Positions 5,020 to 24,556 of a DNA stretch of 64,000 bases are shown one piece after another (the stretch's first letter is position 1; each line of letters opens with the position of its first letter). Source of the stretch: Gammaproteobacteria bacterium. Lineage in GTDB: Bacteria; Pseudomonadota; Gammaproteobacteria; CAJXQU01. A program made the translations under genes and the position numbers. A model generated the notes under the pieces. That model had not been told where the DNA came from and ran no database searches. It saw only the letters and a list, made by a program, of their open reading frames with translations. Where the stretch lies: positions 2,080,001 through 2,144,000 of the forward strand of contig CBDEGZ010000003.1 of NCBI GenBank assembly GCA_965238175.1. The letters run 5' to 3'.

Positions 5020-5049
5020 TATTTAAGATCTCTATTATTAGTTTTTTGT

Positions 5050-6222: not shown

Positions 6223-7577
6223 TGGACTTCCTCTTTATTAATTTGATCATTTCCTTCACTCAGTGATGATCCAGTTAAACGTTCAATTGAGATCACAACT
6301 TGGTGATATTCTTTGATCGAAGCAATAAGCTGCTGTCGTGTTTCAAAATAGGTGCGCTGAGCATCTAACAAGCTCAATAGATCAAGTTTGCCTAGACGAT
6401 ATATTTTTGTTGCTGCATCAAACGCTTGTTTTGCACTTGGCAAAATTTCATCATTTAGTGTTGTGACTTCGTGATCAAAAATCTTTAATCTTTGATATGT
6501 AATAAGTAATGAAGAACGTAATTTTGTCTCGGTTACTTGTTGTTGTTTTGACGAGCGATTTAGATCGAGTTCAGATAGTTGAACTCCCGTTTGTCTTTTA
6601 TCAAATATATACAAAGGAATTGAGATACCAGCGATTGCAGCGATATCGTCTGTTTCGTTTAAACGACGAATACCGGCACTTACTATGATATCTGGGATCG
6701 TGTCTGCTTGCGCCAGATTAATGGCATTTTCGTGACGACTTAACTCAGTAGCCCAGCGTGCCATTTCAGGATTATTGTTAATTCTGTCTGCGATAGTTGC
6801 TAATTGTGGTAATGGAGATATGCTATAAAAATCCCCTTGTACTTTATTGAAGGTAACATCAGTACCACCCCAACCAGTCACCAAAATTTGTTTTGAAATG
6901 GCTAACTGTCGTTCAGCATTGATCTGATTTAATTTTGATTTTGAAAGCTCAACTCTAGCTTTGATCTCTTCCAATGGTGAAACCTTGCCGGCTTTAACGC
7001 GCTTCTTTACAGTTTGATATATTTCTTCAGCAAGTTTTTTAATTTCCTTTGTGACAGCCAGCTTTTCTTGATCTGCAAGTACATCCGCATAAGCTATTGC
7101 TATTTGAGATAAGAGATCGATACGTTTAACTTCGTAATCCCATCGTGCAAGATCACGATCTGTAGATGCAAGTTGAAGACGTTTCATTCGTTTATCACCT
7201 AATTCAACTAGCTGGCTTAAACTGATGGTAGTTTCTGCTGAGCTTAAACCACTAAGCTCCCCAGAGCCGGCAAAGTTTTCCAGCTCTATTCCTGCTTCAG
7301 GATTCGGAGATAACCCGGCTTTAATCTGATCAATCTCTCTGGCTCTGATTGTCCAGGCATAGGTCGCTAATTCAGGATTGTTTTTAAGTGTCAGGACAAC
7401 TGCTTGTCTGAGTGAAAGGTCGCCTGTTGGTTGGATCAACGGTTGATCAAATTCTTCAGGTGCAATTTCTGGTGGCAATAATAATTCATTATTAACGGCT
7501 GTAACTGCTGTATGCATGAGACATGCAACAGCAAATATTAGTGTTTTTTTAAACATATTTTTTTCTCTATCAACCAA
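6219..7577 (-). CDS. czcC: CzcC/TolC family outer membrane factor
   Basis: LSLRQAV..TLKNNPEL, SQLVELGDKR, YRLGKLDLLSLLDAQR. The start may be ATG 7556. Confidence 0.9.
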   Translation of the reverse strand: MVDREKNMFKKTLIFAVACLMHTAVTAVNNELLLPPEIAPEEFDQPLIQPTGDLSLRQAVVLTLKNNPELATYAWTIRAREIDQIKAGLSPNPEAGIELENFAGSGELSGLSSAETTISLSQLVELGDKRMKRLQLASTDRDLARWDYEVKRIDLLSQIAIAYADVLADQEKLAVTKEIKKLAEEIYQTVKKRVKAGKVSPLEEIKARVELSKSKLNQINAERQLAISKQILVTGWGGTDVTFNKVQGDFYSISPLPQLATIADRINNNPEMARWATELSRHENAINLAQADTIPDIIVSAGIRRLNETDDIAAIAGISIPLYIFDKRQTGVQLSELDLNRSSKQQQVTETKLRSSLLITYQRLKIFDHEVTTLNDEILPSAKQAFDAATKIYRLGKLDLLSLLDAQRTYFETRQQLIASIKEYHQVVISIERLTGSSLSEGNDQINKEEVQ

Positions 7578-7650: not shown

Positions 7651-7965
7651 TTACGTGATAGGAGGGTGGTAAGGTGGTGGGTATTTATAGGAACTGTATA
7701 TTTTCATCCGAAAACTAAAAGTTCCTTTGATCTGTTTGCTCGTAATTGAAGGATTTTTTTGTAGTAGACCAACAGAATGTGAGGATAAATGACAGCAGTG
7801 ATCGCAAGCATTTGAGTCACTTTCATATTCAGTATCTATAGCATCTTTTTCAAATGAGTGATTATTTTGAGTTTCAGCTATTTCGTGCGCATAGGCGTGG
7901 ATAGGCAGGACAATTCCTGAGATGACCATTATTGCCAGTAATATTTTTGCCAATCGAATTCGCAT
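7651..7965 (-). CDS. CzcI-like periplasmic metal-binding protein
   Basis: Signal peptide, CDHCCH motif and C-terminal PPYHPPI; first gene of the czcCBA-like operon. Confidence 0.65.
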   Translation of the reverse strand: MRIRLAKILLAIMVISGIVLPIHAYAHEIAETQNNHSFEKDAIDTEYESDSNACDHCCHLSSHSVGLLQKNPSITSKQIKGTFSFRMKIYSSYKYPPPYHPPIT

Positions 7966-8055
7966 TCCCAGAATATGAACTAGTTACTTATAATTTTCAA
8001 ATCCACTAAGCATATTGGCCTTAAGTTTCCAACTAATAGATCAGGATAGTCTATA

Positions 8056-8126
8056 TTGTAATGGTCAAGAACTGCAGAAATAAAAAAAGTGGCTTAAATT
8101 CCTTCAAGATTACTTGACCATTACAA
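8056..8126. repeat. 14-bp perfect inverted repeat (MITE-like remnant or operator)
   Basis: TTGTAATGGTCAAG (8056-8069) and CTTGACCATTACAA (8113-8126), 43-bp spacer. Confidence 0.6.
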
Positions 8127-8516
8127 GCTGAAGAATGCGGGTAGGGGGAATGATACTTTCCGACAAGAGATGTTATTTGGTTAGAGTTTGTTCAAGTATG
8201 ATTTTGCCCTGCTAAATAGAATATTGATTCTTGTATTTCATCAAAATGAAATAATTATTATCTACATTGTTACCCTGGTTACTTTATTCGGAAAATTAGC
8301 ATGGGGATCAAATGTGCTATCGTTTAATCAGAGGAAAACCGACAAACACGAGTTGATAGTCGATGTCCAGTGAATAAAGTAGGTGCTTGAAACGAAAGTG
8401 ATGGCGGGGAACGATGTCCTGACAGCAACTCAATAATTGTCCAAACAAGGCTTCATACCGTGAATCTAAGGTTTATCTTCGTTGATACGGTATGCATTTT
8501 GCTTTAAGCCTTTTCT

Positions 8517-10352
8517 ATGAAAAACTTCCTAATAGTTCCCTTTTTGTTGTTTCTTTTTTCTTGGGCCGGGCTTGTTTTGTCAGAAACGGAGAATGTCATA
8601 GCTGAGGAGCAGGATCTGTTCAGCTATGATGAAGAGGAATCATCAATCAGGGAAGATCCTAAAGATGTGAGTGAAACAGTTTTGGATGAAGCGGCGACTG
8701 CTCATCTTGAATTGTTCGCTGAAGATCGTTACCCATCAGCAAATACCTGTAAGGTCTGTCATCAGGATCACTATCGCGAATGGTCTGTGTCCCAGCATGC
8801 CTATGCCCAACTTAGCCCGGTTTATATGGCGATGCAAAATACCATCAATGCCAAGACCAGTGGTACTAATGGTGATTTTTGTATTCGCTGTCATACCCAG
8901 GTGGGTATGAATCTTGGGGAATCGACTTATATCTCTAATCTTGAACGTCATCCGACTTCACGTGAGGGTATCACCTGTGTTGTCTGTCATCGGATTAAAA
9001 ATGAATACGGCAAGGTATCAGGCCGAATTGCACTGGTGGAAGGTGATTTATTGACACCGGTTCACGGCCCGATGGGTAACAAGGAGCTAAAACGCGTACT
9101 AGATAATAAGAACGAATATCGGGTGGTTACCAAGGCCGATGAGAAAGGCCGTAAAATTCATACTGATGTTGGCCATTTTCCACAGCTTTCAACCTCCGGA
9201 TTTTGTGCTACCTGCCATGATGTGAATTTATTTAATGGTTTTCGATTGGAAGAGGCATTCTCTGAGTATAAAAATTCACCGGCGGCCAAACGAGGTGTCA
9301 GTTGTCAGGATTGTCATATGGGCACTGAGCAAGGAGCAGAATCTGAATATGCACATGGCCCGGCAGCACGGGTTGGTGGTGTTCCAACCAAGTCACGTAA
9401 GTTGACAAATCATTACTTTGCTGGCCCTGATGCTTCGATCATTCATCCTGGAATATTTCCTCATAATTCTGACGCCGTTGCCATGGCGACGATGGAGGAG
9501 TGGTTACAGTTTGATTATGAATCTGGTTGGGGAACAGACGAGTTTGAAGAACAGATCACCGATGATCAAACTTTTCCTGAACGATGGAAATCAATAGATG
9601 ATCGTTACGATGCACGGGCAATCATCAATAAACAGTTTGAATTACTCGACTGGGCAGATCAGCAACGTATACAGGTGATGCAAAACGGTTATAAGCTGGA
9701 TGAGATTGAAATCCAGCAGGCGAATAAAAAAGGCTTGGCATTTCGCATTAAGGTCAGTAATGGCACTGATGGCCATAATGTACCGACAGGTTTTGATGCA
9801 GAGCGTCTGGTCTGGCTTGAAATTACGGTGACAGATCCTGAAGGTAATACAGTTTTTCGTTCGGGAGATCTTGATCCTAATGGAGATCTGCGTGATAGCC
9901 ATTCGCTTTATGTACATAATGATCAGTTGCCGCTGGATAAACAATTATTTACGCTGCAATCGCGTTTTGTAACACGCAATATCCGTGGTGGTGAAAGAGA
10001 GCAGGTATTGACGATTAATTCCTCCCCGGATCCATTACCTTTTATTCGACCCTTTACTCGTTCGATTATGTTAACTGGACAACCTGCCGGAGTGCGAAAA
10101 CACCGACAAACGATCCCGCCACTCAGTGGCCGGTGGGCTAATTATAAAATTCCTGCCAAGGCTATTACTAGCAGCGGTGAATATCATCTTCAGGTTCGTT
10201 TAAAAGCCGCTGCCGTACCAGTCAATCTGATCGATGCGATTAAACAAGTAGGCTTTGATTATGGCATGTCAGCCCGACAGGTTGCGGCAGGTATCGTTGA
10301 TCAACATATGATGATCTGGGAAAAAGAAATGACATTTAAGATGGAACAATAA
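8517..10352 (+). CDS. Exported pentaheme cytochrome c (c554/c552-like N-terminal domain)
   Basis: Signal peptide; five CxxCH motifs (CKVCH, CIRCH, CVVCH, CATCH, CQDCH); GHNVPTG in the C-terminal domain. Confidence 0.9.
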   Translation: MKNFLIVPFLLFLFSWAGLVLSETENVIAEEQDLFSYDEEESSIREDPKDVSETVLDEAATAHLELFAEDRYPSANTCKVCHQDHYREWSVSQHAYAQLSPVYMAMQNTINAKTSGTNGDFCIRCHTQVGMNLGESTYISNLERHPTSREGITCVVCHRIKNEYGKVSGRIALVEGDLLTPVHGPMGNKELKRVLDNKNEYRVVTKADEKGRKIHTDVGHFPQLSTSGFCATCHDVNLFNGFRLEEAFSEYKNSPAAKRGVSCQDCHMGTEQGAESEYAHGPAARVGGVPTKSRKLTNHYFAGPDASIIHPGIFPHNSDAVAMATMEEWLQFDYESGWGTDEFEEQITDDQTFPERWKSIDDRYDARAIINKQFELLDWADQQRIQVMQNGYKLDEIEIQQANKKGLAFRIKVSNGTDGHNVPTGFDAERLVWLEITVTDPEGNTVFRSGDLDPNGDLRDSHSLYVHNDQLPLDKQLFTLQSRFVTRNIRGGEREQVLTINSSPDPLPFIRPFTRSIMLTGQPAGVRKHRQTIPPLSGRWANYKIPAKAITSSGEYHLQVRLKAAAVPVNLIDAIKQVGFDYGMSARQVAAGIVDQHMMIWEKEMTFKMEQ

Positions 10353-10474
10353 TTGAATATGCACTCCATTAATATGTTGTTAATAGAAGAAATAGTAATG
10401 TAAGACAAATAGTTAAAATGACGTTATTTGTTATGACTTTTATATATCAATCATGTCACTTTTAAAGACAGGCA

Positions 10475-12415
10475 TTGCATTATCAGATGATGAAGAATGA
10501 TAGAAAGGACTACATAAAAATGGATATTGGCGTATCGCAGTTATTGCTAATTTCTACGAGGCATCAAAAAGTTCGGCAACGGAATTTATTGACGATTGGC
10601 CTTGTTATCATTATGCAATTGTTGATTATGCAAACCGTATTTGCGGCACAAATGCTAAATGATATAGGGTTTGTTTCTTTACCGAGTGAGCGCGTGCAGA
10701 TCCATATGGATTTCTCAGAAGTATTGAAGGAAGAGCTTCTCAGTTTTACGATTGATAGCCCATCAAGAATAGTGCTTGATTTTCTGGATACTACGGTGGT
10801 GCTCAAAGACAAAACTCAATTAATCGAGATGGGTTCAGCACATAGTGTAACTGCGATTGAGGCAAATGGCCTGACACGTGTTGTGCTAAATCTTGTGAAG
10901 ATGGTGCCTTATGAACTTAAAGTGGCGGGAAATATTGTCATTCTAACGTTGGGCAATTCTAAAGTATCGAAAATACTGAACCAAGCTGTTGATCAAGTGG
11001 CACCTTCAAACACGATGAGGCAAGAAAACAGTGATGTAGCTGAACAAATAGAAATAGCATCAGCATCAACTTCAGGACTACATCTTAGTGATATCGAGTC
11101 AGAAGCCCATGGTTTACGTTTGCCTGATCAGCCTGTACCTTATCTGGCGGATGAAGAATTGCCAGCGAGAGCAGCTCCACTGTTAGAATTAGGTGGTGAT
11201 TTTCTGGGCACAGGAAAGCTCAAGCCTGGTTTTGGCTTACCGACAGGAGCAGTGTGGCAGCCTCGCTTATGGGTGTATGGAACTCAGCGAACAGCGTTAC
11301 AGCATTACAGGGCAGGTAGCGGGCCTGCTGTCTCTGAATGGATGAATCGTCTGGATTTGTTTGGTAATTTACAACTTACGGGGACAGAACGTATCCTTAT
11401 CGGCTTTACACCCTTTCACGAAGATGATCAGTTTACCGGACAGGTTTTTGAACCGGGCTCGGAACGTGGCTTTAAAAATAACCTGAATCTAGATATTCAG
11501 ACGCTTTTTTTTGAGGGCGATTTAGCGGAGCTCTTTCCGAGGTGGGATTATAGAGATTCGACATCGAATGATCTGGGGTTTTCTATCGGACGACAGGAGA
11601 TCGTTTTTCAGGATGGAATATTGATCGCTGATACTCTGGACGGTGTAGGTATCTCTCGAAATAATGTGCGTTTTACAGGTGTTCCCTGGCTGGTTAATCT
11701 GCGAACTACCTTTTTCTTTGGCTGGGACGAGATCCACCGTAATGACAATCAGGAAGATCGTAATGCCAGTTTGTATGGTCTGTTCACGCAACTAGATACT
11801 TCGTTCAGTACCATTGATTTCGATATTGTTTATGTCGATTCGAATGATCTCGGCGGGGGAGATCTAATTTCTGCTGCAGTAGATTCGATTCAGCGTATTG
11901 GAAAAGTCAGTACGACGTTTCGTATTGCCGGTTCAAAGGCGCTGGATCAACGGACTGCTCAAGCTGACGACGGTGTATTACTGTTTACTGAAATCGCTTG
12001 GGTTCCTCCCTATACCCATAACCATGCTTACATTGATGCTTTTGTCAGCATTGATAACTTTACTTCAGCAGCGCGAGCACCACTTTCAGGCGGCCCATTA
12101 GGGCGTACTGGTCTATTATTTGCGGCATCAGGAATAGGTAGTGTGCCTCCCGCCATTGCTAATGGCACAGGGGATTCTTTTGGGATTATTGCGGGCTATC
12201 AACTATTTTTTGACAACGATAGGCGGCAGTTATTACTTGAAGTGGGTGGTCGTACTGGGGATGATCAAAAGCAGGTTGATACTGTCGGTGTTGGAGTTCG
12301 CTTACAACAGGCACTGGGCAGACGCTTTATTGTTGAACTTAGTAGTTATGCTGCCAAACCGGAGCATATGGATATGCAATATGGAACAAGGGGAGAATTG
12401 TTGATCAAGTTCTAA
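10475..12415 (+). CDS. Outer-membrane beta-barrel with N-terminal AMIN domain
   Basis: N-terminal segment resembles the PilQ AMIN domain (FTIDSPSRIVLDF...TRVVLNL); amphipathic strands follow; terminal Phe (ELLIKF). The true start is probably downstream of 10475. Confidence 0.7.
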   Translation: MHYQMMKNDRKDYIKMDIGVSQLLLISTRHQKVRQRNLLTIGLVIIMQLLIMQTVFAAQMLNDIGFVSLPSERVQIHMDFSEVLKEELLSFTIDSPSRIVLDFLDTTVVLKDKTQLIEMGSAHSVTAIEANGLTRVVLNLVKMVPYELKVAGNIVILTLGNSKVSKILNQAVDQVAPSNTMRQENSDVAEQIEIASASTSGLHLSDIESEAHGLRLPDQPVPYLADEELPARAAPLLELGGDFLGTGKLKPGFGLPTGAVWQPRLWVYGTQRTALQHYRAGSGPAVSEWMNRLDLFGNLQLTGTERILIGFTPFHEDDQFTGQVFEPGSERGFKNNLNLDIQTLFFEGDLAELFPRWDYRDSTSNDLGFSIGRQEIVFQDGILIADTLDGVGISRNNVRFTGVPWLVNLRTTFFFGWDEIHRNDNQEDRNASLYGLFTQLDTSFSTIDFDIVYVDSNDLGGGDLISAAVDSIQRIGKVSTTFRIAGSKALDQRTAQADDGVLLFTEIAWVPPYTHNHAYIDAFVSIDNFTSAARAPLSGGPLGRTGLLFAASGIGSVPPAIANGTGDSFGIIAGYQLFFDNDRRQLLLEVGGRTGDDQKQVDTVGVGVRLQQALGRRFIVELSSYAAKPEHMDMQYGTRGELLIKF

Positions 12416-12420
12416 CGACT

Positions 12421-13707
12421 ATGGAAAGAGATATACTATTTCAAGGATTAGCCTATATTGTCATATTTGCAGCTTTTGTGCAGTTGTTGGCCTTTTTATA
12501 TTCACTCTGGTGTAGCGTTGTACAGGCACGCGTGCAAAATGAGATTTCTATTCAGATGTTACGTCAACAGTTGGGGCAAGAGACATTGACTGCGGCACTT
12601 GAGCGTAGTCGATCAGAATCGGGTTGGACTGGTTTACGTAAATTCAGAATTGATGAGAAAGTTGATGAAGGTGCAGATATTTACTCATTCTATCTCAGCG
12701 CGCATGATGGCCAGATCATACCTTCTTTTCTACCAGGCCAACACCTGACTTTTCGTTTGCGGATACCGGGTAAGGATAAACTGGTGACCTGTTGCTACTC
12801 ACTGTCAGATAGCCCACAGACTGACAGATATCGCATCTCGGTTAAAAGACTCGCACCGCCTGATGAGCAACCAGATCTCCCTGCAGGTTTGGTTTCGGAT
12901 TATTTCCATCACCAGCTTGGAAAGGGTGATATTGTGGATGTCATAAGTCCTTCTGGGAAATTTTATTTGGATATGACCCGACATACACCGGTAGTATTGA
13001 TTGGAGCCGGGATAGGTGTCACACCCGTACTTAGTATGCTCAATAGTATTTGTCAGGCAAATATCCAACGGGAAACATGGTTCTTCTATGGTGTTCGCAA
13101 TAGCAATGAACAGATTATGCGACCTCATCTGGAAATGTTGGCCAATAATAATGAAAATGTACATATGCAGTTTTGCTATAGTCAGCCGCTACATAAAGAT
13201 GAACCAGGGATGGACTTTCATCATCCTGAACGAGTGAGTATAGAACTGTTGCAAAAAATATTACCCTCCAATAATTATGATTTTTACATTTGTGGACCGT
13301 TGGTAATGATGCAGTCCTTGGAAATAGGTTTGAAAGCTTGGGGTGTGCCCGATAATAAGATTCATATGGAGCGGTTTGGTCCTAGTAGTGGAAGTGCACA
13401 AATAGCAGCTAACCAAAAGGTTCTGTCATATAGCGGATCTCAATCATCAGAAGAGTATACGGTCAATTTTGCCCGATCAGGTAAATCAGTGAAATGGATG
13501 GGAACGACGGAAAATCTACTGGAGCTTGCAGAAGAACATGACATTATCATTGATAGTTGCTGTCGGTCTGGTAATTGCGGTACTTGTATGACGGAAATTA
13601 AGTCTGGTGAAATCGATTACCGTGGAATCTCTGAGATGGTGGTCGCTCCTGGATACTGTCTCCCTTGTATTGCCCGACCTTCATCGGATGTTATACTGGA
13701 CGCCTGA
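12421..13707 (+). CDS. Membrane-anchored FAD/NAD(P)H oxidoreductase with C-terminal [2Fe-2S] ferredoxin
   Basis: N-terminal TM helix; YSLSD, GAGIGVTP, YICGP, ERF; CRSGNCGTC...C ferredoxin motif. Confidence 0.9.
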   Translation: MERDILFQGLAYIVIFAAFVQLLAFLYSLWCSVVQARVQNEISIQMLRQQLGQETLTAALERSRSESGWTGLRKFRIDEKVDEGADIYSFYLSAHDGQIIPSFLPGQHLTFRLRIPGKDKLVTCCYSLSDSPQTDRYRISVKRLAPPDEQPDLPAGLVSDYFHHQLGKGDIVDVISPSGKFYLDMTRHTPVVLIGAGIGVTPVLSMLNSICQANIQRETWFFYGVRNSNEQIMRPHLEMLANNNENVHMQFCYSQPLHKDEPGMDFHHPERVSIELLQKILPSNNYDFYICGPLVMMQSLEIGLKAWGVPDNKIHMERFGPSSGSAQIAANQKVLSYSGSQSSEEYTVNFARSGKSVKWMGTTENLLELAEEHDIIIDSCCRSGNCGTCMTEIKSGEIDYRGISEMVVAPGYCLPCIARPSSDVILDA

Positions 13708-13758
13708 GTTACAGATTATTCCCAAAGGCTACTAGAAATATTTAAATGGAGGTTAATA

Positions 13759-14769
13759 ATGAGCCATCTTAATTCAAAAAATATGTTACTTAGATTATGT
13801 GTGGGAGTTACATATCTGCTGTTTTCACGGTGTGTCTCGGCAACTCAGGATCTGCATTTGAATCCAGAAAAGGTTAAAGGCCCCGATGCTTGTGGCGAAT
13901 GCCATGAAGATGAAATGGCTATCTGGAAAAAAACTAAACACTCCACAACCTTTACCAAGTTACCACGCAAGGAAAAGGCTAAGGAAATTGCAGATAGAAT
14001 GGGTATTAAACGGATCAAGGCTGATAGTGATTGTCTGAATTGTCATTTCACCAGTGACCTTGTGGGGGAAAAAGTTAAACCTATTGCCGGCATTACTTGT
14101 GAATCATGTCATTCTGCCGGGCAAGACTGGATTGATGGACATAGTGACTTTGGTGGTAAAGATGTGAAAGCTGAAGATGAAACGTCAGAACACAAAAAAC
14201 AACGCTATGCAGAGGCAGAAAAGGCCGGAATGATCCGACCGAAAAATCTCTACGATCTAGCTCGAAACTGTTTTTCCTGCCATACGGTACCTAACGAAAA
14301 ACTGGTAAATATTGGCGAGCATAAAGCGGGAAGTAAGTTTGAATTGGTGCGTTGGAGTCAGGGTGATCTCAGGCATAATGTTTGGTATTCAAAGGAGAAC
14401 AAAGAGGCTTCCCTGGAGCGACGTCGAATGATGTTTCTGATCGGACAAGTGTTGGATCTTGAATATGGTCTGCGTGGACTTGCCAAGGCCACAAAAAAGG
14501 CTGCTTATGCCACCGCAATGGCCAAGCGAACACAATCTGCTCAACGCAGAGTTGAAAAGCTGGCAACTGTAGTTGAGTCAAAAGAGTTAAATACAATTGT
14601 TGAAACTGTAAAAAATACTGATCTCAAGTTGAATAATAGTAGTTCACTTTTAGCAGCAGCTGACAAAATTTCCAGCTTGGCACAACAGCTGGTTAGCAAA
14701 TATGATGGTAGCCAGTTTGTAGGTTTTGATGCATATTTACCCAAACCTGAAAAATATAAAAAGAATTGA
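13759..14769 (+). CDS. Exported tetraheme cytochrome c (c554-like)
   Basis: Signal peptide; CGECH, CLNCH, CESCH, CFSCH. Confidence 0.9.
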   Translation: MSHLNSKNMLLRLCVGVTYLLFSRCVSATQDLHLNPEKVKGPDACGECHEDEMAIWKKTKHSTTFTKLPRKEKAKEIADRMGIKRIKADSDCLNCHFTSDLVGEKVKPIAGITCESCHSAGQDWIDGHSDFGGKDVKAEDETSEHKKQRYAEAEKAGMIRPKNLYDLARNCFSCHTVPNEKLVNIGEHKAGSKFELVRWSQGDLRHNVWYSKENKEASLERRRMMFLIGQVLDLEYGLRGLAKATKKAAYATAMAKRTQSAQRRVEKLATVVESKELNTIVETVKNTDLKLNNSSSLLAAADKISSLAQQLVSKYDGSQFVGFDAYLPKPEKYKKN

Positions 14770-14833
14770 GTTATCAAGGCTATGCTGACGGGCATGAATA
14801 AACTATAAAAGGTTCTCATCAGTATCAGTCACT

Positions 14834-16561
14834 ATGAACAGAGATATTACATCAATTAAACGCCCAAAAAGATGGGATACCCCTTTCTGTGAAGATATGG
14901 ATGATGCCAAGATTCAGCAGGTGTTATTGCATGAACCCTTTGCCAGTATGGATCGAACACGTTTCCCCCAAAATCTGTCGCTAGAAGGGATCTTGAAGAA
15001 TGATTGCCGGGTGCGTACCTATCGTGATGCAGAAGTTGTCATACGTGCAGGTGATTATGGCCACTCTGCTTTTTTTATCTTAAGTGGTCATGCCAGGGTA
15101 ATCCTTCCAACAAATTTACCTGATGAATTATTGGGTAGAAGCACTATAAAGAAAAAAAATATTTTTAGATCTATCGCCCAATTGTGGACCAATGATCACT
15201 ATCCTGAGGTACGAAATGTTGGTCAATATAAATCGGGTAACACGGAAAATAAAATAGATAATAATGATGAAGTACGTATTTTTTTACAGGATATTCCTGG
15301 TGTTATAAACAGGAACCATTCTACGGTCTTAGAAACTGGAGATATATTTGGAGAGGTTGCAGCACTATCACGTAGCTCGCGTGAAGCCACGGTTATTACT
15401 GAAGGTAAAACAGTTTTGTTGGAAATGCGTTGGGCAGCGTTACGAGATATTAGAAAGTGGATCAATGAATTCCGCTTACATGTTGATCGCCTTTACCGTG
15501 AACAAAGCCTGGTTTCTCATTTGCAGTCAACGGAGTTATTTACCCACTTAAGTCTTGATATTATTGAACATATTGCCGAGCAAACTTTATTTGAATCTCA
15601 CGGTGATTTTGAGTGGTATAAAGAATATAAAAAACAGTTAAGTTCGAGCGAGCCCTCCAGCCGGATCGATAATGCGCCAGTAATCGTTGCTGAAGGTGAT
15701 TACCCAGACGGATTATTATTGATCAGATCTGGTTTCGCCCAGGTTGTAAAGAAAATCAACCATGGTTTTATGACGATGGAATATTTGGGCAGAGGGGCTA
15801 GCTTCGGCTTGGGTGAGATCATTGAGCATTCTCAGGGAAATTCAAAGATCACCTCCAAAACTGGTTTACGAGCGTTGGGATATACGGATGTTTTACGTGT
15901 ACCTACCTTCCTGATCGAAAAATATGTGCTTCCCAACCTTTCACAGAGCAAACGTGTCAAGTTGATCAACACGTACAAAACGATTGCACTAGAAAGTGAT
16001 GAGAATAGTATCCCTGAAGCACCAGTCGATACAGGTTTGCTGGAATTTTTTGTCGAGCACCACTACATTAATGGTGAGGCTACGATGTTGATCGACCTTG
16101 ATAAATGTACACGTTGTGACGAATGTGTGGTGGCATGTGCCACGGCACATAACAACAATCCCCGCTTTAATCGACACGGTGAAACCTATGACCATTATAT
16201 GGTGGCCAATGCCTGTATGCAGTGTTCTGATCCTGTATGCATGATCGGCTGTCCGACAGGTGCCATTCACCGATCAACGACAACAGGTACAGTCACTATC
16301 AACGACAGCAGCTGTATAGGTTGTTCAGTCTGTGCTAATGCGTGCCCTTATAATAATATTCGTATGGTACCTATCAGGGATCAACAGGGAGAACGTATTT
16401 TGGACAAGGATACCAATGTCCCTATCACTAAGGCCACCAAATGTGATCTATGTATAGCTCAGCCTGGCGGGCCTGCTTGTCAGCGTGCATGCCCACATGA
16501 TGCTCTGACCAGGGTGGATATGCATGACTTACCAAAGCTGGCAGAATGGTTAAACCGTTGA
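14834..16561 (+). CDS. Tandem cNMP-binding domain protein fused to a 4x[4Fe-4S] (DmsB/NrfC-like) domain
   Basis: GDIFGEVAALSRSSREATV phosphate-binding cassette; second degenerate cNMP domain; four Cys groups CTRCDECVVAC, CMQCSDPVCMIGCP, CIGCSVCANACP, CDLC...CQRACP; no export signal. Confidence 0.88.
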   Translation: MNRDITSIKRPKRWDTPFCEDMDDAKIQQVLLHEPFASMDRTRFPQNLSLEGILKNDCRVRTYRDAEVVIRAGDYGHSAFFILSGHARVILPTNLPDELLGRSTIKKKNIFRSIAQLWTNDHYPEVRNVGQYKSGNTENKIDNNDEVRIFLQDIPGVINRNHSTVLETGDIFGEVAALSRSSREATVITEGKTVLLEMRWAALRDIRKWINEFRLHVDRLYREQSLVSHLQSTELFTHLSLDIIEHIAEQTLFESHGDFEWYKEYKKQLSSSEPSSRIDNAPVIVAEGDYPDGLLLIRSGFAQVVKKINHGFMTMEYLGRGASFGLGEIIEHSQGNSKITSKTGLRALGYTDVLRVPTFLIEKYVLPNLSQSKRVKLINTYKTIALESDENSIPEAPVDTGLLEFFVEHHYINGEATMLIDLDKCTRCDECVVACATAHNNNPRFNRHGETYDHYMVANACMQCSDPVCMIGCPTGAIHRSTTTGTVTINDSSCIGCSVCANACPYNNIRMVPIRDQQGERILDKDTNVPITKATKCDLCIAQPGGPACQRACPHDALTRVDMHDLPKLAEWLNR

Positions 16562-17379
16562 TGAGATTACCGAAGTTTGTTATTAAACTTTTGTTCGTGA
16601 TTATTCTTGCTATTATCATATGGTTTTTAATTAGTGCTAGGCAGATTAACCTTGAGGCTCAGCAGTATTTCTCTGGCTGGCTTCTGGTAAGCAGTATCTT
16701 GTTGTTAATGCTCTATGGCATTCGTAAAAGATTCTCTATGTTGCCGTTGAAATCCAATGCATGGTGGTTGCAGCTACATATTTATCTGGGCATGTTGACA
16801 ACTTTGGTGTTTTTTTGTCATGTCGAGTGGTCTTTGCCCAATGGCTGGTTGGAAACAACACTGTATATTCTTTTCATCAGTATTCTTCTGAGTGGTTTAA
16901 TTGGGCTGTATCTGAGTAAAACCATACCGCGGAAGCTCACACAACGTGGTGGGGAAGTGATCTATGAACGTATCCCCAGTTTTATCAGGGAATTGCGCGA
17001 GGAAGCACAACAGCTTGTCGTGGAAACCACCAGAAAGACAGGTTCTTCAACCCTGGCTGATTTTTATCTTAATCATCTTGCTGGTTTTTTTGCTAAACAG
17101 AGAAATTTTTCCAGGCATTTAATCCGATCACATAGCCAGATGGTCAAGTTACTGGAAAAGCTGGAGGATCTGGAAAGGTATTTGGATCCAGAGGAGCGAA
17201 GATATGCAAGACAATTTGCTGTATTAGTAAAGAAAAAAGATTATCTTGATTATCACTACGCATTGCAGTTTTTACTCAAGGGTTGGTTGTTGATCCATGT
17301 GCCTCTGATCTCCGGAGTGTTCGTTTTTCTGTGTATGCATGTGGTTTTGGTTTACGCATTTCATAGCGCAGTACAGTGA
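16561..17379 (+). CDS. Integral membrane protein, putative di-heme cytochrome b
   Basis: Several TM helices; two H-x13-H pairs (HIYLGMLTTLVFFCH and HVPLISGVFVFLCMH); ATG overlaps the upstream TGA. Confidence 0.65.
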   Translation: MRLPKFVIKLLFVIILAIIIWFLISARQINLEAQQYFSGWLLVSSILLLMLYGIRKRFSMLPLKSNAWWLQLHIYLGMLTTLVFFCHVEWSLPNGWLETTLYILFISILLSGLIGLYLSKTIPRKLTQRGGEVIYERIPSFIRELREEAQQLVVETTRKTGSSTLADFYLNHLAGFFAKQRNFSRHLIRSHSQMVKLLEKLEDLERYLDPEERRYARQFAVLVKKKDYLDYHYALQFLLKGWLLIHVPLISGVFVFLCMHVVLVYAFHSAVQ

Positions 17380-19610
17380 ATTATATCCCGCTACAAAAAT
17401 TTGACTACCTTAGTAGTCCCTATGCGCGGCCTAATGATAAATGGACTTGTGGTCGAGCCCGTGAAGGTAAACCCTGCCCCCTGGGACCCAATAAGAAAGG
17501 TCACTGCCAGGCTACTTATGAATGTCACCCACATAAGAAAGATGAACGTTGGCTCTGTAGCCGTTCTTCACTACATGGAGGGCGGTGTGAAAATGGGCCA
17601 TTACCTGACGGTGTTTGTTGCCGCAAAATTGAGCGTTGTTGTCCTACCCGTAGCTGGCGGGCCAGGCGTAGCTATATCAGTCGATGGTTTTTTGTATTAT
17701 GTCTGGGCATCTTGGTGCTACTGTTGTTCGGATCAGATAGGGCCGCATTTATAAGTCCGGGTAAATTAACCGCCAGCCATGCTGGTATTGAAGACTGCAA
17801 GAATTGCCATAGTGCCTTTGAAAAGGGGGTGACACATTGGCTGCAGTCAGCACTTAAACTGGATGCCGGTACAGATGACAGTCAGCGTTGTCTATCATGT
17901 CACGTTATCAAGAAAAATGCACAAAGTCCTCATAATCTGGATAAAGATTCTTTAGAAGGATTAACCCGCGAGGCTACGGTAGCCAGTGAAAAGCTGTTCA
18001 TGCCCTATCTGTCTATTGCAACAGGGTTACTACCTGCAAAAGAGCAGCATGGGACATTAACCTGTGCCCTCTGTCATCGGCAACACCAAATGGGTGAAAC
18101 AAACTTTTCAGGTATTAAGGAGCAACGTTGTCAGGTTTGTCATACAGCACAATTTGAGAGCTTTGCAACGGGCCATCCTGAATTTAATCGCTTTGCCTAC
18201 TCGCAGCGTACCCCGATTAATTTTGATCATACCAGCCATTTATATAAACACTTTGAGGATGAAAAGTATAAGGATCAGGCTCAAAAAGAGTGTCTTGAAT
18301 GTCACCAACCGGATGCCGAGGGCCACAGCATGCTAGTAGATTCATTTGATGCGGTTTGTAGTGGGTGTCATCGTTCACAGATCATGGGACAGGAACGATC
18401 AGGCTCGAAAGGTGTGGTCGTGATGAATGTGCCAGGTCTGGATCTGGAAGTTTTGCGTGCAAATGATTTATTGATTGGGAGTTGGCCAGTGTCTTCAGAC
18501 GAAGAACTCACTCCCTTGATGGCCTTATTGTTATCAGCTGATCCTGCCTTCGTTAAGGCACAAAAGCAGCTTGTTGATATCGATCTAATGGATCTATCTT
18601 TGGCAACGGAAGAACAGTTGAAAGCAGTGGTTGATATAGGTTGGTGTATTAAACAATTTCTATTGGCGTTGACAGAACTAGGGACGACTGAGATTAAAAG
18701 AAGATTGGAAATTCTCAGTGAAGAGAAGTTATCTCGAATTCAGATGAAATCTCTGTTGGCATTGCCAGAGGATGTTTTACGCAGTGCACAGCAGCAATGG
18801 TTTCCGCAGTTAATGGAAGAGATGCATCTTTTCGAGGTTGGAGATACTAAGGCTTTACTGCAACTTGGAAAGGTAGTTGATAAAAGTCCGATACCAGTAG
18901 TCCACGATACAGAGAAGCAATCGAAATTAACGTTGGAGTCAGATGAACTTATTTTAGAAGAAGAGTTGCCCCTTGGTGAGAATGATGCTGCCCTTTTTAC
19001 TGAACAAGATGAAGATGATCCCTTTGCTGAAGAAAAATCGACTGAACAAACGAGTATTGCTCCTGTACGACTTGAAGCTGAACAATGGGCAGCTTTTGGT
19101 GGTTGGTTCCGTGGTGATTTTTCTTTATCTTATGCGCCACAGGGACATGCCGATCCCTTTCTAAAACATTGGATAGACTACTTGGCAAGTCAAAAAAACC
19201 ACTTTGAGAAACGTGGTTTTCAAGCTCTTATGAAAGGCACCCCGCCTGGAGCATGTAATAAGTGCCATAGTATTAGTCGCCTAGAAGCTGGTGGAGTTAC
19301 AGTAAACTGGGCATCAGAAGACAAAAAGAGGCTGATGGTTCCCGGTTTTACCAAATTTTCACATACTTCTCATTTTTATACGGCCGATGGTAAGGGGTGT
19401 GAAAATTGTCATATGATTGATAAGAAAGCGGACTATGCTGCGAGTTATGAACAAGATGATCCACATAGTTTTAAAAGCAATTTTAAACCTATACAACGCC
19501 AGGAATGTACGGCCTGTCATCAACAAGGATTAGCAGGGGACACTTGTTTACAGTGCCACAATTATCACGTAACAGATATTCTCTATGAGCTCATGCCAGA
19601 GAAGCATTAA
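17376..19610 (+). CDS. Membrane-anchored decaheme cytochrome c with Cys-rich N-terminal domain
   Basis: Ten CxxCH motifs after a single TM helix; ten Cys before the helix. Confidence 0.88.
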   Translation: MNYIPLQKFDYLSSPYARPNDKWTCGRAREGKPCPLGPNKKGHCQATYECHPHKKDERWLCSRSSLHGGRCENGPLPDGVCCRKIERCCPTRSWRARRSYISRWFFVLCLGILVLLLFGSDRAAFISPGKLTASHAGIEDCKNCHSAFEKGVTHWLQSALKLDAGTDDSQRCLSCHVIKKNAQSPHNLDKDSLEGLTREATVASEKLFMPYLSIATGLLPAKEQHGTLTCALCHRQHQMGETNFSGIKEQRCQVCHTAQFESFATGHPEFNRFAYSQRTPINFDHTSHLYKHFEDEKYKDQAQKECLECHQPDAEGHSMLVDSFDAVCSGCHRSQIMGQERSGSKGVVVMNVPGLDLEVLRANDLLIGSWPVSSDEELTPLMALLLSADPAFVKAQKQLVDIDLMDLSLATEEQLKAVVDIGWCIKQFLLALTELGTTEIKRRLEILSEEKLSRIQMKSLLALPEDVLRSAQQQWFPQLMEEMHLFEVGDTKALLQLGKVVDKSPIPVVHDTEKQSKLTLESDELILEEELPLGENDAALFTEQDEDDPFAEEKSTEQTSIAPVRLEAEQWAAFGGWFRGDFSLSYAPQGHADPFLKHWIDYLASQKNHFEKRGFQALMKGTPPGACNKCHSISRLEAGGVTVNWASEDKKRLMVPGFTKFSHTSHFYTADGKGCENCHMIDKKADYAASYEQDDPHSFKSNFKPIQRQECTACHQQGLAGDTCLQCHNYHVTDILYELMPEKH

Positions 19611-21133: not shown

Positions 21134-21862
21134 TTAATATTTTATGCAGTACATTACTGAAATATTTTTGGGATTAAATCCGTTTTCAGACAAATCCAAA
21201 ACCTGCTCTTCAGTGTTGTCGTTAAATACGGTGTCATTAAAGCGCACCGCATCAATTACAGGTATCGTGCCCAATTGAGTTTCGAAGGTTTGGGTGCTTA
21301 TGGATATATCTGCACCTTTAACATCTTGAAACTCACCCATAACTCGTCCAGGATCGACGCCTTCTCCATTATCCCAAGCGCGGAGAAATTGGCCTCGAAA
21401 ATTGGGAGCTCTAAAAGTTGTTGCTCCATCACCTGTGCTGAAAGCTCCGAACATACCGTTATTAAGGTAATCGTCATCACTAACTAATTTAAAGTTATTC
21501 TCAGGTCTATTGATCCAGTCCCAGAGTCTTTCATTTGTAACGCGTGATAATTCGTCGTCACAGCACTCCAAACTTCCTGCAGGTGGTGTTTCGCCTACGT
21601 GCAGGTATGGCACACCGAGTCCTGATAATTGTAATATGGCTTGAAACAATTGACTGAAATCTCCTTTCGTTTGGTCTGGCTCAAGCCCTGCCCCGGTGAC
21701 GACATTATAGAGTTCCTGCTGGACCATATTAAACCAGTCTTGGCCCGGAACGGTGGCTGGTTGCGAGCCATCTGTCGAGCCTTTTACAAAGTGCCCCGGC
21801 GCACCTTCTGGTTGTATTGCAGGTAATGATGATACGGCTGTTGGGGTGTCTACTAAATGCAT
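21134..21862 (-). CDS. Tail fibre / tail collar domain protein
   Basis: Mu S-like N-terminus (DWFNMVQQEL); collar motif GDGATTFRAPNFRGQFLRAWD. Confidence 0.85.
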   Translation of the reverse strand: MHLVDTPTAVSSLPAIQPEGAPGHFVKGSTDGSQPATVPGQDWFNMVQQELYNVVTGAGLEPDQTKGDFSQLFQAILQLSGLGVPYLHVGETPPAGSLECCDDELSRVTNERLWDWINRPENNFKLVSDDDYLNNGMFGAFSTGDGATTFRAPNFRGQFLRAWDNGEGVDPGRVMGEFQDVKGADISISTQTFETQLGTIPVIDAVRFNDTVFNDNTEEQVLDLSENGFNPKNISVMYCIKY

Positions 21863-21872
21863 TTCATTTCTC

Positions 21873-22451
21873 CTAAACGTAACTGAATAATACGGTGGTA
21901 TGAGCAGGTTTGAGTCGCGTCATCAGGCACTCTAAAAGCTCATTTCCCCATGTCCTTAATGGTTCATCACAGCCAGAATTGACGGTGAATTCGGTTATGG
22001 TTTCGAGCGGTGCGACGACTATCCAGGTGAAAACGATATCTTCTTCCCAAAGAGCGTCGTCTACGCTGCTATCGACAGTAAAAGGACGTAGTTCTTGGAT
22101 GCTTATATCGAAGTTGGCTCGCTTGGCCACCCCGATGTAATATTGTCGAGATTGACCGCCGATTCTGGTGACTTTTTCATGCAGTGCTTTTTGTCTGCCT
22201 GCTATGGTTGTGGGTGGCGACAAACAGGGTTCTGGCAGCGCAAAAGCACGCTCCCATTCGTTGAGTAATTGGACGGTAGTACGTGGGTCAGTTTCTTCGA
22301 TTAATTCAAAGGCTCTTTGCTCGATTGCGGCGAATTCTACCGCCAGCGATTCGAGTGTTTCATCCAATACTGATCCCGGCTCGGATAACCACGCTGCACC
22401 TGTTGTTAGCAGTGCTTTTAGCTGTTGTGTGTAATGTCGGATTCTACTCAT
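21873..22451 (-). CDS. Mu gp48-like baseplate protein (YmfQ/DUF2313)
   Basis: LLNEWERAFALP, GGQSRQY, LECLMTRLKPAHT. Confidence 0.88.
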   Translation of the reverse strand: MSRIRHYTQQLKALLTTGAAWLSEPGSVLDETLESLAVEFAAIEQRAFELIEETDPRTTVQLLNEWERAFALPEPCLSPPTTIAGRQKALHEKVTRIGGQSRQYYIGVAKRANFDISIQELRPFTVDSSVDDALWEEDIVFTWIVVAPLETITEFTVNSGCDEPLRTWGNELLECLMTRLKPAHTTVLFSYV

Positions 22452-23509
22452 TATGCAAATGTCACTGTGCCAAGTTCAGGCATCTCGTTTGTTGCGTGGG
22501 TGACATTATTGGATGGCATTGTGATTTGGTGATCGTTCTCGCCAGAGGCTATCGAAACAGCCTCGCGAATATGTGATATTAAAACGGTCTGACCTGGTTC
22601 AGATTCACGAGCGAACATCGCCAACAATTCCGCCTGAACCGCTGCCTGTGTTGTTGCGTTATTAGGTGATAATCCCGTAATTTCAATATCGACATTAACG
22701 GCTACAGGTGCGACAACAGTGACGACAGCAGTAACCGGTCTAAGACCTTGTATATACGCGTCGACTTCGGCAACTTTTGCCGGATTTGGAATAAAGCCTG
22801 CAGGATCATTATCAGTCACAAATCTCACAACAACCGTGCCATCACCCGCCTCCATTGGGTAGACCCATGCGCGCGTTACACCAGCCACTTGTAACGCCCA
22901 TTGAATATAGTCAAAGCTGGCCCCACCGTGTGGTGGTTGTTGAATTCTGGCCAGTAATCTTTTACGCAGATCATCATCTGATTCGGCAGATGATCCACCA
23001 GTGATTGCAGCACTATCAACGGTGGCTGTTGAGCTGATTCCGGCGATGGGTGAGACCAGCGTTAATTGCGTCGCAGCATCGATGTTTCCGATATCACCAC
23101 CCTCAACGGCGATGATGACCATATCGAGGCTGGTAGCCGTAAAAGTTGCTTCCTCAACGGTTGTAAATTCGACGTTATCCTGACGTTGCAATTTCGTATT
23201 TTTCGGGATAACTAATCCGGCAGAACCGGTGAATGTAACAACGCCTGTCGCCTGTGCTGCAGGCTTTGGTTTTATGCCCCATATGTCGGCCTGACGTTGC
23301 AGAAATTCCGCCTCTGATGTGTCTGGAAAAAACTGTCTCGCCAGCCAATTTAAAAAGCCGTACAGGCCATTAGTTGCCGCCGCGTGGATGCGTGATAACA
23401 CGTTAAGATTTGAGCGGCGTAATTTAGCATCGACACCGGGTAGTCGAGTTTCAAATTCGCTGGTGGCACGCGCTATTAATTCGGTTATTGTGGGTACGTT
23501 ATAGGCCAT
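22451..23509 (-). CDS. Mu gp47 / baseplate J-like protein
   Basis: GGSSAESDDDLRKRLL, PPHGG, DYIQWALQVAGVTRAW. Confidence 0.92.
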   Translation of the reverse strand: MAYNVPTITELIARATSEFETRLPGVDAKLRRSNLNVLSRIHAAATNGLYGFLNWLARQFFPDTSEAEFLQRQADIWGIKPKPAAQATGVVTFTGSAGLVIPKNTKLQRQDNVEFTTVEEATFTATSLDMVIIAVEGGDIGNIDAATQLTLVSPIAGISSTATVDSAAITGGSSAESDDDLRKRLLARIQQPPHGGASFDYIQWALQVAGVTRAWVYPMEAGDGTVVVRFVTDNDPAGFIPNPAKVAEVDAYIQGLRPVTAVVTVVAPVAVNVDIEITGLSPNNATTQAAVQAELLAMFARESEPGQTVLISHIREAVSIASGENDHQITMPSNNVTHATNEMPELGTVTFA

Positions 23510-24510: not shown

Positions 24511-24556
24511 GGAACGCCTGTCAATTTGAAATCTTATTTACGAGGGGTAAATAAAA

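Follow-up and report, generated by a model that had tools for sequence, protein, structure and literature searches.

What would a bacterium gain from a gene cluster that joins a membrane-anchored NAD(P)H reductase to an iron-sulfur protein with cyclic nucleotide-binding domains, a membrane protein with paired histidines, three multiheme cytochromes and a putative outer-membrane barrel? Such a cluster fills positions 8517-19610 of a 64,000-nt stretch of gammaproteobacterial DNA (contig CBDEGZ010000003.1; hereafter the window) with seven consecutive open reading frames (ORFs) on the + strand, exactly where the preliminary description of this DNA had placed them. By gene order and product descriptions, the cluster is a copy of ptdABCDEFG as set out in the text of a preprint (bioRxiv 10.1101/2023.11.21.568154), the gene names of which are used here. 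We put about even chances on ptd being a signal-gated, non-respiratory electron export chain, in which electrons would pass from PtdC through PtdE, PtdF, PtdG and PtdD to PtdA and PtdB. What the sequences show directly is conserved cofactor motifs, signals of membrane topology and linked genes; the contacts between the Ptd proteins and the direction of flow are inferred. The features of the cluster are as follows.

ptdA, 8517..10352, + strand: secreted pentaheme c-type cytochrome of 611 aa with a heme-free C-terminal half
ptdB, 10475..12415, + strand: putative outer-membrane beta-barrel of 646 aa
ptdC, 12421..13707, + strand: predicted membrane-anchored FAD/NAD(P)H reductase of 428 aa with a C-terminal plant-type 2Fe-2S domain
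ptdD, 13759..14769, + strand: predicted periplasmic tetraheme cytochrome of the c554 type, 336 aa, with a helical C-terminal part
ptdE, 14834..16561, + strand: predicted cytoplasmic regulatory Fe-S subunit of 575 aa with two cyclic nucleotide monophosphate (cNMP)-type domains and a four-cluster ferredoxin wire
ptdF, 16546..17379 (alternative start 16561), + strand: predicted five-helix inner-membrane protein of 277 aa with two H-x13-H pairs
ptdG, 17376..19610, + strand: predicted bitopic decaheme cytochrome of 744 aa
Upstream of ptdA, 7966..8516: non-coding stretch of 551 bp, the presumed promoter/operator site

Composition, identity and conservation of the cluster

The three cytochrome genes contribute five (8517-10352), four (13759-14769) and ten (17376-19610) CxxCH motifs, so that the earlier count of 5+4+10 in seven co-oriented genes is borne out by both ORF coordinates and motif counts. 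These 19 motifs lie within the 3,617 aa of the Ptd products, against none in the 44 other window ORFs of at least 150 aa (13,798 aa), a concentration that is far above chance. The gaps between the genes measure, from 5′ to 3′, 122, 5, 51 and 64 nt, and are followed by two overlaps. The last 16 nt of ptdE are shared with ptdF; the overlap shrinks to 1 nt (TGATG) with the second ATG of ptdF as start, at which the database copy of the window PtdF (P0121, 272 aa) begins. The stop of ptdF and the start of ptdG share 4 nt (GTGA); the stop/start overlaps formerly noted among the last three genes are thus real. None of the seven proteins attains the curated cut-off of any NCBIfam model.

The preprint (bioRxiv 10.1101/2023.11.21.568154) lists as products a pentaheme PtdA with a heme-free C-terminal half, a porin PtdB, an FAD/NAD(P) oxidoreductase PtdC, a tetraheme PtdD, a cNMP/4Fe-4S protein PtdE, a ferric-reductase-like membrane protein PtdF and a decaheme PtdG. 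The window likewise holds cytochromes of five, four and ten hemes in one cluster, interspersed with the porin, oxidoreductase, cNMP/4Fe-4S and ferric-reductase-like proteins and arranged from A to G; for PtdB and PtdF, the names porin and ferric reductase are putative. According to the same text, the function of ptd ‘remains completely unknown’, ptdAB are highly transcribed in an oxygen-deficient zone, PtdA is related to the cytochrome of PDB entry 5ze8, and all examples come from saline habitats. The statement in the preliminary description that similar clusters had been predicted computationally was therefore right, the cluster in question being ptdABCDEFG, and the novelty of the cluster is reduced accordingly as it has already been named and described. 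A full-text search of one literature library found no biochemical characterisation, in line with what had been supposed, and no other paper containing ptdABCDEFG, PtdA together with PtdG, or the combination of cyclic nucleotide-binding, multiheme and extracellular electron transfer. As an aside, ‘ptd’ also names phosphite-oxidation genes, with a risk of confusion in text searches.

Several features go beyond the text of the preprint, namely the invariant histidines of PtdF, the four cluster motifs of PtdE, its intact cyclic nucleotide cassette, the duplicated four-cysteine domain of PtdG (2xCys4) and the links to cyclases and FHA domains; the supplementary tables of the preprint may bear on distribution and localisation. 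Four Cys4 motifs are counted here in PtdE where the preprint gives two clusters, and the cytoplasmic 2xCys4 domain of PtdG seen here apparently goes unmentioned in its text. The carriers found here are not only saline (groundwater, Lake Baikal and the title of a soil strain are represented). Homologues in marine Alphaproteobacteria, Gammaproteobacteria and Planctomycetota agree with the statements made there, whereas we find Nitrospinota where the preprint has Nitrospirales.

Loci were gathered by an alignment scan with the PtdE family, taking one genome per species, which confirmed at least 578 stretches; 80 loci were kept, many of which end at contig edges. The family returns 4,083 matches among 8,000 scored candidates. 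The best 120 are 49-64% identical to the query and all contain cNMP_binding and Fer4 domains; 115 of them cover at least 96% of the query, and the rest are one shorter and four longer, FHA-bearing forms. In tblastn searches of the 80 loci with the window proteins, PtdE is found in 80, PtdF in 77, PtdG in 74, PtdD in 73, PtdC in 67, and PtdA and PtdB in 53 each. All seven genes occur together in 49 of the 80 loci, spread over at least seven phyla, and the gene-neighbourhood comparison that had been proposed as a check on the cluster consequently shows a block conserved across phyla. The order of the window, ABCDEFG, is seen in 21 loci, DEFGABC in 12 and an inverted C-B-A ahead of DEFG in seven, whereas 11 have CDEFG only; among the loci without ptdA and ptdB within 10 kb are some of the Pirellulales type. 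Two units persist through these rearrangements: ptdE, ptdF and ptdG are consecutive and co-oriented in every one of the 74 loci with ptdG, and ptdA is adjacent to ptdB in 50 of the 52 loci having both.

By record title, the carriers comprise Alpha-, Beta- and Gammaproteobacteria, Planctomycetota, Verrucomicrobiota, Kiritimatiellota, Bacteroidota, Nitrospinota, SAR324 and Acidobacteriota. Other titles name groundwater (L035), Lake Baikal (L076) and Opitutus sp. GAS368 (L058), a strain that comes from forest soil (PMC5615132), and a cultured carrier is Hwanghaeella grinnelliae (L038). The titles point mostly to open-ocean, lake, groundwater and soil-associated lineages that are not known metal respirers. 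In a FastTree phylogeny of 73 PtdE sequences the arrangement is mostly phylum-wise with a few cross-phylum placements, and the window sequence stands beside that of a gammaproteobacterial metagenome-assembled genome (MAG), L047. Two loci titled Kiritimatiellae (L024) and Gammaproteobacteria (L026) have near-identical PtdE sequences (branch lengths 0 and 0.01) and isolate names with a common prefix; one of the two contigs is probably mis-binned, and phylum counts drawn from MAG titles therefore need care.

Predicted electron path across two membranes

The path would begin at PtdC, which is predicted to be tethered at the inner face of the inner membrane by an N-terminal helix and there to oxidise NAD(P)H, passing on single electrons through FAD and a 2Fe-2S cluster. 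The protein matches the Pfam families FAD_binding_6, NAD_binding_1 and, at its C-terminus, Fer2, and its hydrophobic anchor helix spans residues 13-31 (nt 12457-12513), in agreement with its earlier description as a membrane-anchored reductase with FAD, NAD(P)H and 2Fe-2S domains. Of 59 homologues, 56 begin with a hydrophobic segment; conservation of the 2Fe-2S ligands Cys381, Cys386, Cys389 and Cys416 (nt 13561-13668) is 100%. Among NCBIfam models, the reductase part of flavohemoprotein scores highest (252 bits, cut-off 432). In the window copy, a further cysteine, Cys380 (13558-13560), stands just before the first 2Fe-2S ligand at a position where 98% of 60 aligned sequences have Gly.

From PtdC the electrons would enter the four-cluster wire of PtdE. 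The 16 cluster cysteines of PtdE (residues 425-553, nt 16106-16492) form four Cys4 motifs that are invariant in 19 diverse sequences, a pattern shared with the four-cluster ferredoxin wires of the DmsB/NrfC/HybA/NarH/HycB type. In agreement with this assignment, PDB relatives of the Fe-S part include HycB3 (E 1.1e-20) and HycB4, the Fe-S subunit of an arsenate-reductase-type enzyme, NrfC, the nitrate reductase beta chain and the Fe-S subunit of formate dehydrogenase-N. As a hydrophobic N-terminus or export signal is found in none of 72 PtdE homologues, a cytoplasmic location is probable. Pfam assigns cNMP_binding and Fer4 families to the product of 14834-16561, and the protein is thus of the composition first proposed for it, cNMP-binding with four [4Fe-4S] motifs.

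PtdE would dock on PtdF, in which an inner and an outer heme b are proposed to form the transmembrane path, in the manner of NOX/FRE enzymes, cytochrome b or NarI. The two H-x13-H pairs on which this assignment had been founded, His78 (16777-16779) with His92 (16819-16821) and His251 (17296-17298) with His265 (17338-17340), lie inside predicted helices 3 and 5, respectively, with 13 residues between the positions of each pair. Invariance of these residues had been set as a check, and all four are present in 71 of 71 PtdF sequences. Five helices are predicted, with a cytoplasmic domain of ∼110 aa between helices 4 and 5. The positive-inside rule places the N-terminus inside, such that helices 3 and 5 would be parallel with His78 and His251 near the cytoplasmic face and His92 and His265 near the periplasmic face. 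In NOX/FRE enzymes and cytochrome b, histidine pairs so arranged are the ligands of two stacked hemes b, and PtdF is accordingly presumed to be a di-heme b transmembrane wire. Among 61 members, the Pfam matches are weak and are to DUF4405 (34 members, best 3e-6), Ni_hydr_CYTB (17) and Ferric_reduct (nine, best E 0.0015); one sister cluster carries the automatic name ‘Ferric reductase like transmembrane component’ in the Atlas. PtdF matches none of the nitrate-reductase gamma, NrfD and NapC/NirT families, and a PDB profile search with PtdF gives nothing below E 0.1.

On the periplasmic side, the electron would be accepted by the ten bis-histidine hemes of PtdG, which is proposed to sit beside PtdF by virtue of a single helix and a cytoplasmic domain. 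Ten CxxCH motifs are present in 57 of 60 homologues together with ten further conserved histidines. The sequence opens with a Cys-rich N-terminal region of ∼100 residues, followed by a helix, six CxxCH motifs, ∼290 heme-free residues and the remaining four motifs. The membrane helix comprises residues 101-119 (nt 17676-17732) and is preceded by an Arg-rich sequence, in keeping with which PtdG is predicted to be bitopic with its 2xCys4 domain (residues ∼16-98, nt 17421-17669) on the cytoplasmic side. At least 93% of 60 sequences keep each of the eight cysteines of this domain, which belong to a duplicated four-Cys unit; all 32 homologues tested score z>3 for the repeat, and two of 1,000 shuffled sequences reach the score of the window copy. 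The domain has no relative in Pfam and none below E 0.1 in a PDB profile search, and for PtdG as a whole the PDB search returns nothing below E 0.01. When 1.84 billion representatives were searched with its profile, the domain was found in 672 clusters at 50% identity, 583 of them at E<=1e-10. It starts within the first 22 residues in all 150 of the matches listed, which are mostly proteins of 650-1,100 aa. By these searches the 2xCys4 domain is a family-specific signature of PtdG.

The periplasm would then be crossed from tetraheme PtdD to pentaheme PtdA. PtdD has four CxxCH motifs in 70 of 70 homologues, with four further conserved histidines, and matches both Pfam Cytochrome_C554 (E 8.7e-15) and cytochrome c554 in the PDB (1bvb, E 5.5e-7). 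PtdA begins with a hydrophobic, signal-like segment, and its five CxxCH motifs are kept in 44 of 44 aligned homologues. Six further conserved histidines accompany the five motifs, and no CxxCK is present, so that there are enough histidines for bis-histidine ligation of every heme. Its pentaheme region also matches Cytochrome_C554, and PDB searches give a single relative, pentaheme c552 of Thermochromatium tepidum (5ze8; E 1.8e-10, residues 59-273), with which the C-terminal part aligns marginally. In the family of ExtKL, GSU2801 and this cytochrome, the five-heme domain precedes one of immunoglobulin-like type. Matches to curated models fall far short of their cut-offs: the best NCBIfam match is the ExtKL model (35.8 bits, equivalog cut-off 250), and the DmsE/MtrA-type decaheme model gives 28.1 bits (cut-off 192.2) with PtdA and no match with PtdG. 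With these assignments, the cofactor motifs that had been predicted for PtdC, PtdE and the three cytochromes are all present and conserved.

At the end of the path, PtdA in or at the PtdB barrel would hand the electron to the outside or to an acceptor near the outer membrane. PtdB lacks cysteine, contains ∼18-20 alternating amphipathic segments by a crude count, and ends in Phe in the window; the last residue of 52 homologues is Phe in 42, Leu in seven and Tyr in three. On the other hand, it has no relative in Pfam or below E 0.1 in a PDB profile search, and PtdB and 51 homologues match no porin family with the sole exception of one member (OprB, E 0.014). The proposed beta-barrel therefore stands on the absence of Cys, the C-terminal aromatic or Leu residue and the amphipathic segments, and finds no counterpart among known families; we regard an outer-membrane beta-barrel as likely. 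Alignment of the homologues places the start of the conserved core at about residue 222 (nt ∼11138). Residues 1-221 (10475-11137) are a lineage-specific extension that is absent in most homologues and consists of a signal-like helix and a low-complexity linker, with a sub-threshold AMIN-like stretch (E 0.0044). Different long N-terminal extensions of PtdB are seen in a few other loci (L039, L070).

Proposed control, direction and purpose of electron flow

The proposed site of regulation is PtdE, in which residues that bind cyclic phosphate are kept, with cyclase genes as neighbours and FHA domains in some lineages. PDB relatives of its N-terminal part are the cNMP domains of PKG and PKA, and the phosphate-binding cassette of domain 1 (residues 172-187, nt 15347-15394) aligns with the cassettes of these kinases. 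Among 73 sequences, Phe172 is conserved in 71, Gly173 and Glu174 in all and Arg183 in 70, such that domain 1 has the Gly-Glu and Arg with which PKA/PKG/CAP-type cassettes grip ribose and cyclic phosphate. Domain 2 is degenerate, with Glu328 in 68 and Arg346 in 57 of the 73 sequences and a 16-residue insert. The 604 non-ptd ORFs of the 80 loci were clustered to find recurrent neighbours. The commonest is a class III adenylate/guanylate cyclase, present in 12 loci, the next most frequent neighbour being found in six; besides the cyclase, no extra neighbour gene is conserved in the 80 loci. The cyclase is directly adjacent in nine loci, of which seven are of the Pirellulales type (divergent from ptdC), one is from SAR324 (a 7TMR-DISM sensor cyclase upstream of ptdA) and one from Tepidisphaeraceae (convergent, after ptdG), and three alphaproteobacterial loci have it 1.6-2.1 kb past ptdC. 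The seven Pirellulales loci form a single clade and are taken as one event. Overall, the cyclase-bearing loci occupy at least four separate places on the PtdE tree and show at least four different arrangements. As cyclases are numerous in these phyla, the linkage is supportive and not decisive. Control by a cNMP, as suggested at the outset, thus gains independent support from the cassette (Glu in 73 and Arg in 70 of 73 sequences) and from the cyclase neighbours.

A second type of input is suggested for some lineages, in which an FHA domain and a kinase neighbour point to phospho-threonine. An FHA domain is present in seven of eight long PtdE forms tested, at the N-terminus in three and internally in four, and FHA-fused PtdE is found in L016, L017, L025, L029 and L054. 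A Ser/Thr kinase with PEGA domains is a neighbour in three of the 80 loci (L022, L029 and L054), two of which have an FHA-PtdE. In view of these features, PtdE is the predicted signal-receiving subunit of the cluster.

As to direction, electrons flowing outward from NAD(P)H would run strongly downhill but leave protons inside and consume membrane potential, such that no energy is conserved. A regulated, special-purpose reductase of the NOX/FRE kind therefore fits better than respiration, and the cost of outward flow is plausibly the reason why the chain would be gated. Bis-histidine hemes are generally of low potential, which is counted here in favour of the outward direction, as is the predominance of carrier titles other than those of known metal respirers. 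In the title of its paper, as given in a reference-list entry, the 5ze8 cytochrome is termed ‘low-potential’. Candidate purposes are the reduction of Fe(III), Mn or humics for acquisition and the production of reduced oxygen species.

Among the closest parallels to this scheme would be the NOX/FRE/FRO and MsrQ-type enzymes, with which ptd has in common cytoplasmic NAD(P)H and FAD and two His pairs about 13 residues apart on parallel helices. NOX/FRE enzymes contain two stacked hemes b, transfer electrons outward without energy conservation and are tightly regulated. The spacing that characterises the NOX superfamily, two pairs ∼13 residues apart on two parallel helices, is present in the PtdF sequence as predicted, whereas the FAD/NAD(P)H domain is not fused to or docked on the heme domain and is encoded by a separate gene, ptdC. 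Ptd also differs in that electrons would pass a 2Fe-2S cluster and a four-cluster wire between the flavin and the heme proteins, in that PtdF has five predicted helices with one more from PtdG rather than six, and in that the outer heme of PtdF would feed 19 c-type hemes and not O2 or Fe(III) directly.

At the outer membrane, the resemblance is to the porin-cytochrome conduits (MtrCAB/MtoAB/PioAB and ExtHIJKL of Geobacter), in which a multiheme gene likewise directly precedes a barrel gene. Ptd has neither an MtrB/PioB-family barrel nor an MtrA/DmsE-family decaheme cytochrome, however, and differs further in lacking a lipoprotein-type surface cytochrome and in having an inner-membrane input other than CymA, ImcH or CbcL. 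The c552 of T. tepidum, a cytochrome of unknown function for which a relationship with ExtKL and with a nanowire cytochrome is described (PMC11976967; bioRxiv 10.1101/2023.11.21.568154), is grouped by structure with ExtKL, the genes of which cluster with the porin gene extI (PMC11976967), and ExtKL-ExtI is therefore the nearest studied analogue of PtdA-PtdB. A porin-multiheme cluster of freshwater Verrucomicrobia (PMC5615132) was considered and set aside as another system, in which the periplasmic cytochrome has eight heme sites. The three-layer arrangement, with an Fe-S protein in the cytoplasm, a di-heme b protein in the membrane and a multiheme cytochrome in the periplasm, recalls Tmc/Hmc, NarH-NarI and FdnH-FdnI, to which ptd would add cNMP domains (in some lineages FHA), an NAD(P)H reductase and an outer-membrane module; PtdF is not recognisably similar to NarI or FdnI. 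The Tmc/Hmc complexes of sulfate reducers have HdrD-like Fe-S proteins and carry electrons inward.

The rival explanations are taken here in falling order of probability. In a quinol-coupled respiratory chain, PtdF would be a quinol dehydrogenase (CymA/CbcL/NarI-like) that feeds PtdG, PtdD and PtdA/PtdB for extracellular electron transfer to Fe(III), Mn(IV) or humics, with PtdC and PtdE as a side input or redox sensor. NarH-NarI pairs a four-cluster protein in the cytoplasm with a di-heme b protein in the membrane and includes a quinol site, and the nitrate reductase beta chain is among the PtdE relatives; this likeness of PtdE-PtdF to NarH-NarI, as far as the comparison goes, speaks for respiration and against a non-respiratory export chain. 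The layout of the cluster is moreover porin-cytochrome-like, and the preprint (bioRxiv 10.1101/2023.11.21.568154) proposes iron reduction in oxygen-deficient water. Against this stand the dedicated NAD(P)H reductase linked in 67 of the 80 loci, the Fe-S wire that would be superfluous for a quinol oxidase, the want of any PtdF match to the nitrate-reductase gamma, NrfD or NapC/NirT families, and the many carrier titles that are open-ocean or soil-associated, and we consider respiration unlikely. A comparably low probability is given to an NAD(P)H-driven periplasmic reductase of nitrite, NO, hydroxylamine or peroxide, with PtdA as an NrfA-like catalyst and PtdB as a porin for substrate or product. 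PtdD is of the c554 type, and cytochrome c554 is a partner in hydroxylamine oxidation; PtdC is closest to the reductase of the NO-inducible flavohemoprotein (252 bits). PtdA is placed in the NrfA cluster of orthologous groups, and ptd genes are noted both for nitrite oxidisers and for nod-transcribing MAGs (bioRxiv 10.1101/2023.11.21.568154). Yet all heme motifs of PtdA are CxxCH with no CxxCK, its six extra histidines suffice for six-coordinate hemes, its score against Pfam Cytochrom_C552 is 15.8 bits for a cut-off of 24.1, and its solved relative, 5ze8, is not described as an enzyme in the sources that mention it.

Much less probable is the view of ptd as two unrelated neighbours, the outer-membrane pair PtdA/PtdB and an inner-membrane redox sensor, PtdD to PtdG, that reports to the cNMP/FHA protein PtdE without bulk electron flow. 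The signalling domains on PtdE and the shifting of an A-B(-C) module relative to a (C-)D-E-F-G module (21, 12 and seven loci in the three orders, with CDEFG only in 11) would fit such a division. The modules are nonetheless co-located in 49 of the 80 loci across phyla despite the rearrangement, and several of the loci without A/B stop at contig edges. Furthermore, four Fe-S clusters, two hemes b and ten hemes c exceed the needs of a sensor, and PtdE has no output domain (DNA-binding, kinase or cyclase) in Pfam and NCBIfam scans. Least probable, to the point of being remote, is inward uptake, by which Fe(II), reduced humics or sulfide would supply electrons through PtdA/PtdB, PtdD, PtdG, PtdF and PtdE to PtdC and so provide autotrophs with NAD(P)H. 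MtoAB and PioAB are thought to work inward (PMC6344600), and some carriers are titled Nitrospinota, SAR324, Acidiferrobacter or Methylococcales. Most carrier titles, however, are not those of lithoautotrophic lineages. By established bioenergetics, the reduction of NAD(P)+ at ∼-320 mV against an inside-negative potential would demand a donor far below -400 mV, and no energy-coupling subunit is found among the seven ptd genes.

For the gated export chain itself, a number of observations besides the NarI likeness have to be set on the other side. The PtdF matches to di-heme families are weak, the PtdF profile shows no similarity to E. coli MsrQ (hhalign probability 0.4%) or YodB, and no longer, fused forms of PtdF were found, which is weak evidence. 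The fully flanked locus L066 lacks PtdC, and in the window copy of PtdC Cys124 (12790-12792) replaces the Arg of the RxYS-type FAD motif that is kept in 98% of 60 aligned sequences; this substitution and that to Cys380 could affect FAD binding, or mark the lineage. In the cassette of PtdE, position 184 is Thr or Ser in 59 of 73 sequences, whereas the window protein has Glu, and neither a cyclase nor a kinase lies beside ptd in the window itself. The version of the proposal that concerns iron acquisition is further weakened by the lack of conserved iron-uptake genes beside ptd in the 80 loci and of standout Fur-type boxes. Finally, the transcription of ptd in an anoxic water layer (bioRxiv 10.1101/2023.11.21.568154) also fits respiration.

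A more specific form of the export proposal is put forward tentatively, and we think it on balance less probable than not in its full extent. In this form, ptd would be a two-membrane counterpart of NADPH oxidase and ferric reductase, that is, second-messenger-gated, quinone-independent and spending both NAD(P)H and membrane potential, with which aerobic bacteria of ocean, lake, groundwater and soil would produce extracellular superoxide or mobilise Fe, Mn or humic-bound metal; the 2xCys4 domain of PtdG may then be a new metal-binding clamp of the Fe-S subunit. The matter is of some breadth as ptd is widespread, with thousands of PtdE family members at about 50% identity across phyla in addition to the 672 clusters of the PtdG domain. 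Should the export chain work as proposed, ptd would be without bacterial precedent as a path for electrons from cytoplasmic NAD(P)H to the outer membrane that avoids the quinone pool, and it would be the first electron conduit under cyclic-nucleotide control. It would also offer an enzyme candidate for the reduction of Fe and Mn and for the extracellular reactive oxygen attributed to bacteria that do not respire metals in oxic and low-oxygen waters. The parts list and the invariant residues make the mechanism directly testable.

Surroundings of the cluster in the window

The presumed promoter/operator site upstream of ptdA contains no recognisable control element in 7966-8516, where promoter-like sites number 23 against a shuffled mean of 30.7; promoter and terminator scans of this region are not above chance, and an Rfam search of it gives no match to a riboswitch or RNA family. 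Consensus scans for Fur, FNR and CRP upstream of ptdA, ptdC and ptdD in all loci give observed means equal to those of shuffled sequences (e.g. 10.79 versus 10.34 for Fur). An AT-rich, Fur-like stretch upstream of the window ptdA was rejected as a candidate, as its agreement of 13/19 is not above the best scores of other loci.

The flanks of ptd are gammaproteobacterial in look and include a plsX-fabHDG-fabF-pabC-mltG-tmk-holB run. Divergent from ptdA lies an RND efflux operon on the - strand (1909-7577) that encodes an outer-membrane factor, a membrane-fusion protein and an AcrB-type pump, and between this operon and ptdA is an ORF of 104 aa without a family (7651-7965, - strand). Downstream of the cluster, Mu-like phage genes occupy 21134-35690, with a tail fibre, Gp48, baseplate J, Gp46 and Gp45 on the - strand and Gam, GemA, an endolysin, DUF1804, the large terminase, a portal, a Dam-type methylase and Mu F on the + strand. 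The ORFs scanned in this element include no transposase, and it therefore looks incomplete or rearranged. At 36000-42186, a low-GC stretch (0.30 at 36001-38000) adjoins a filamentous-phage-like module, the parts of which are a Zot-family assembly ATPase, a replication protein and a 542-aa protein that matches phage families of unknown function.

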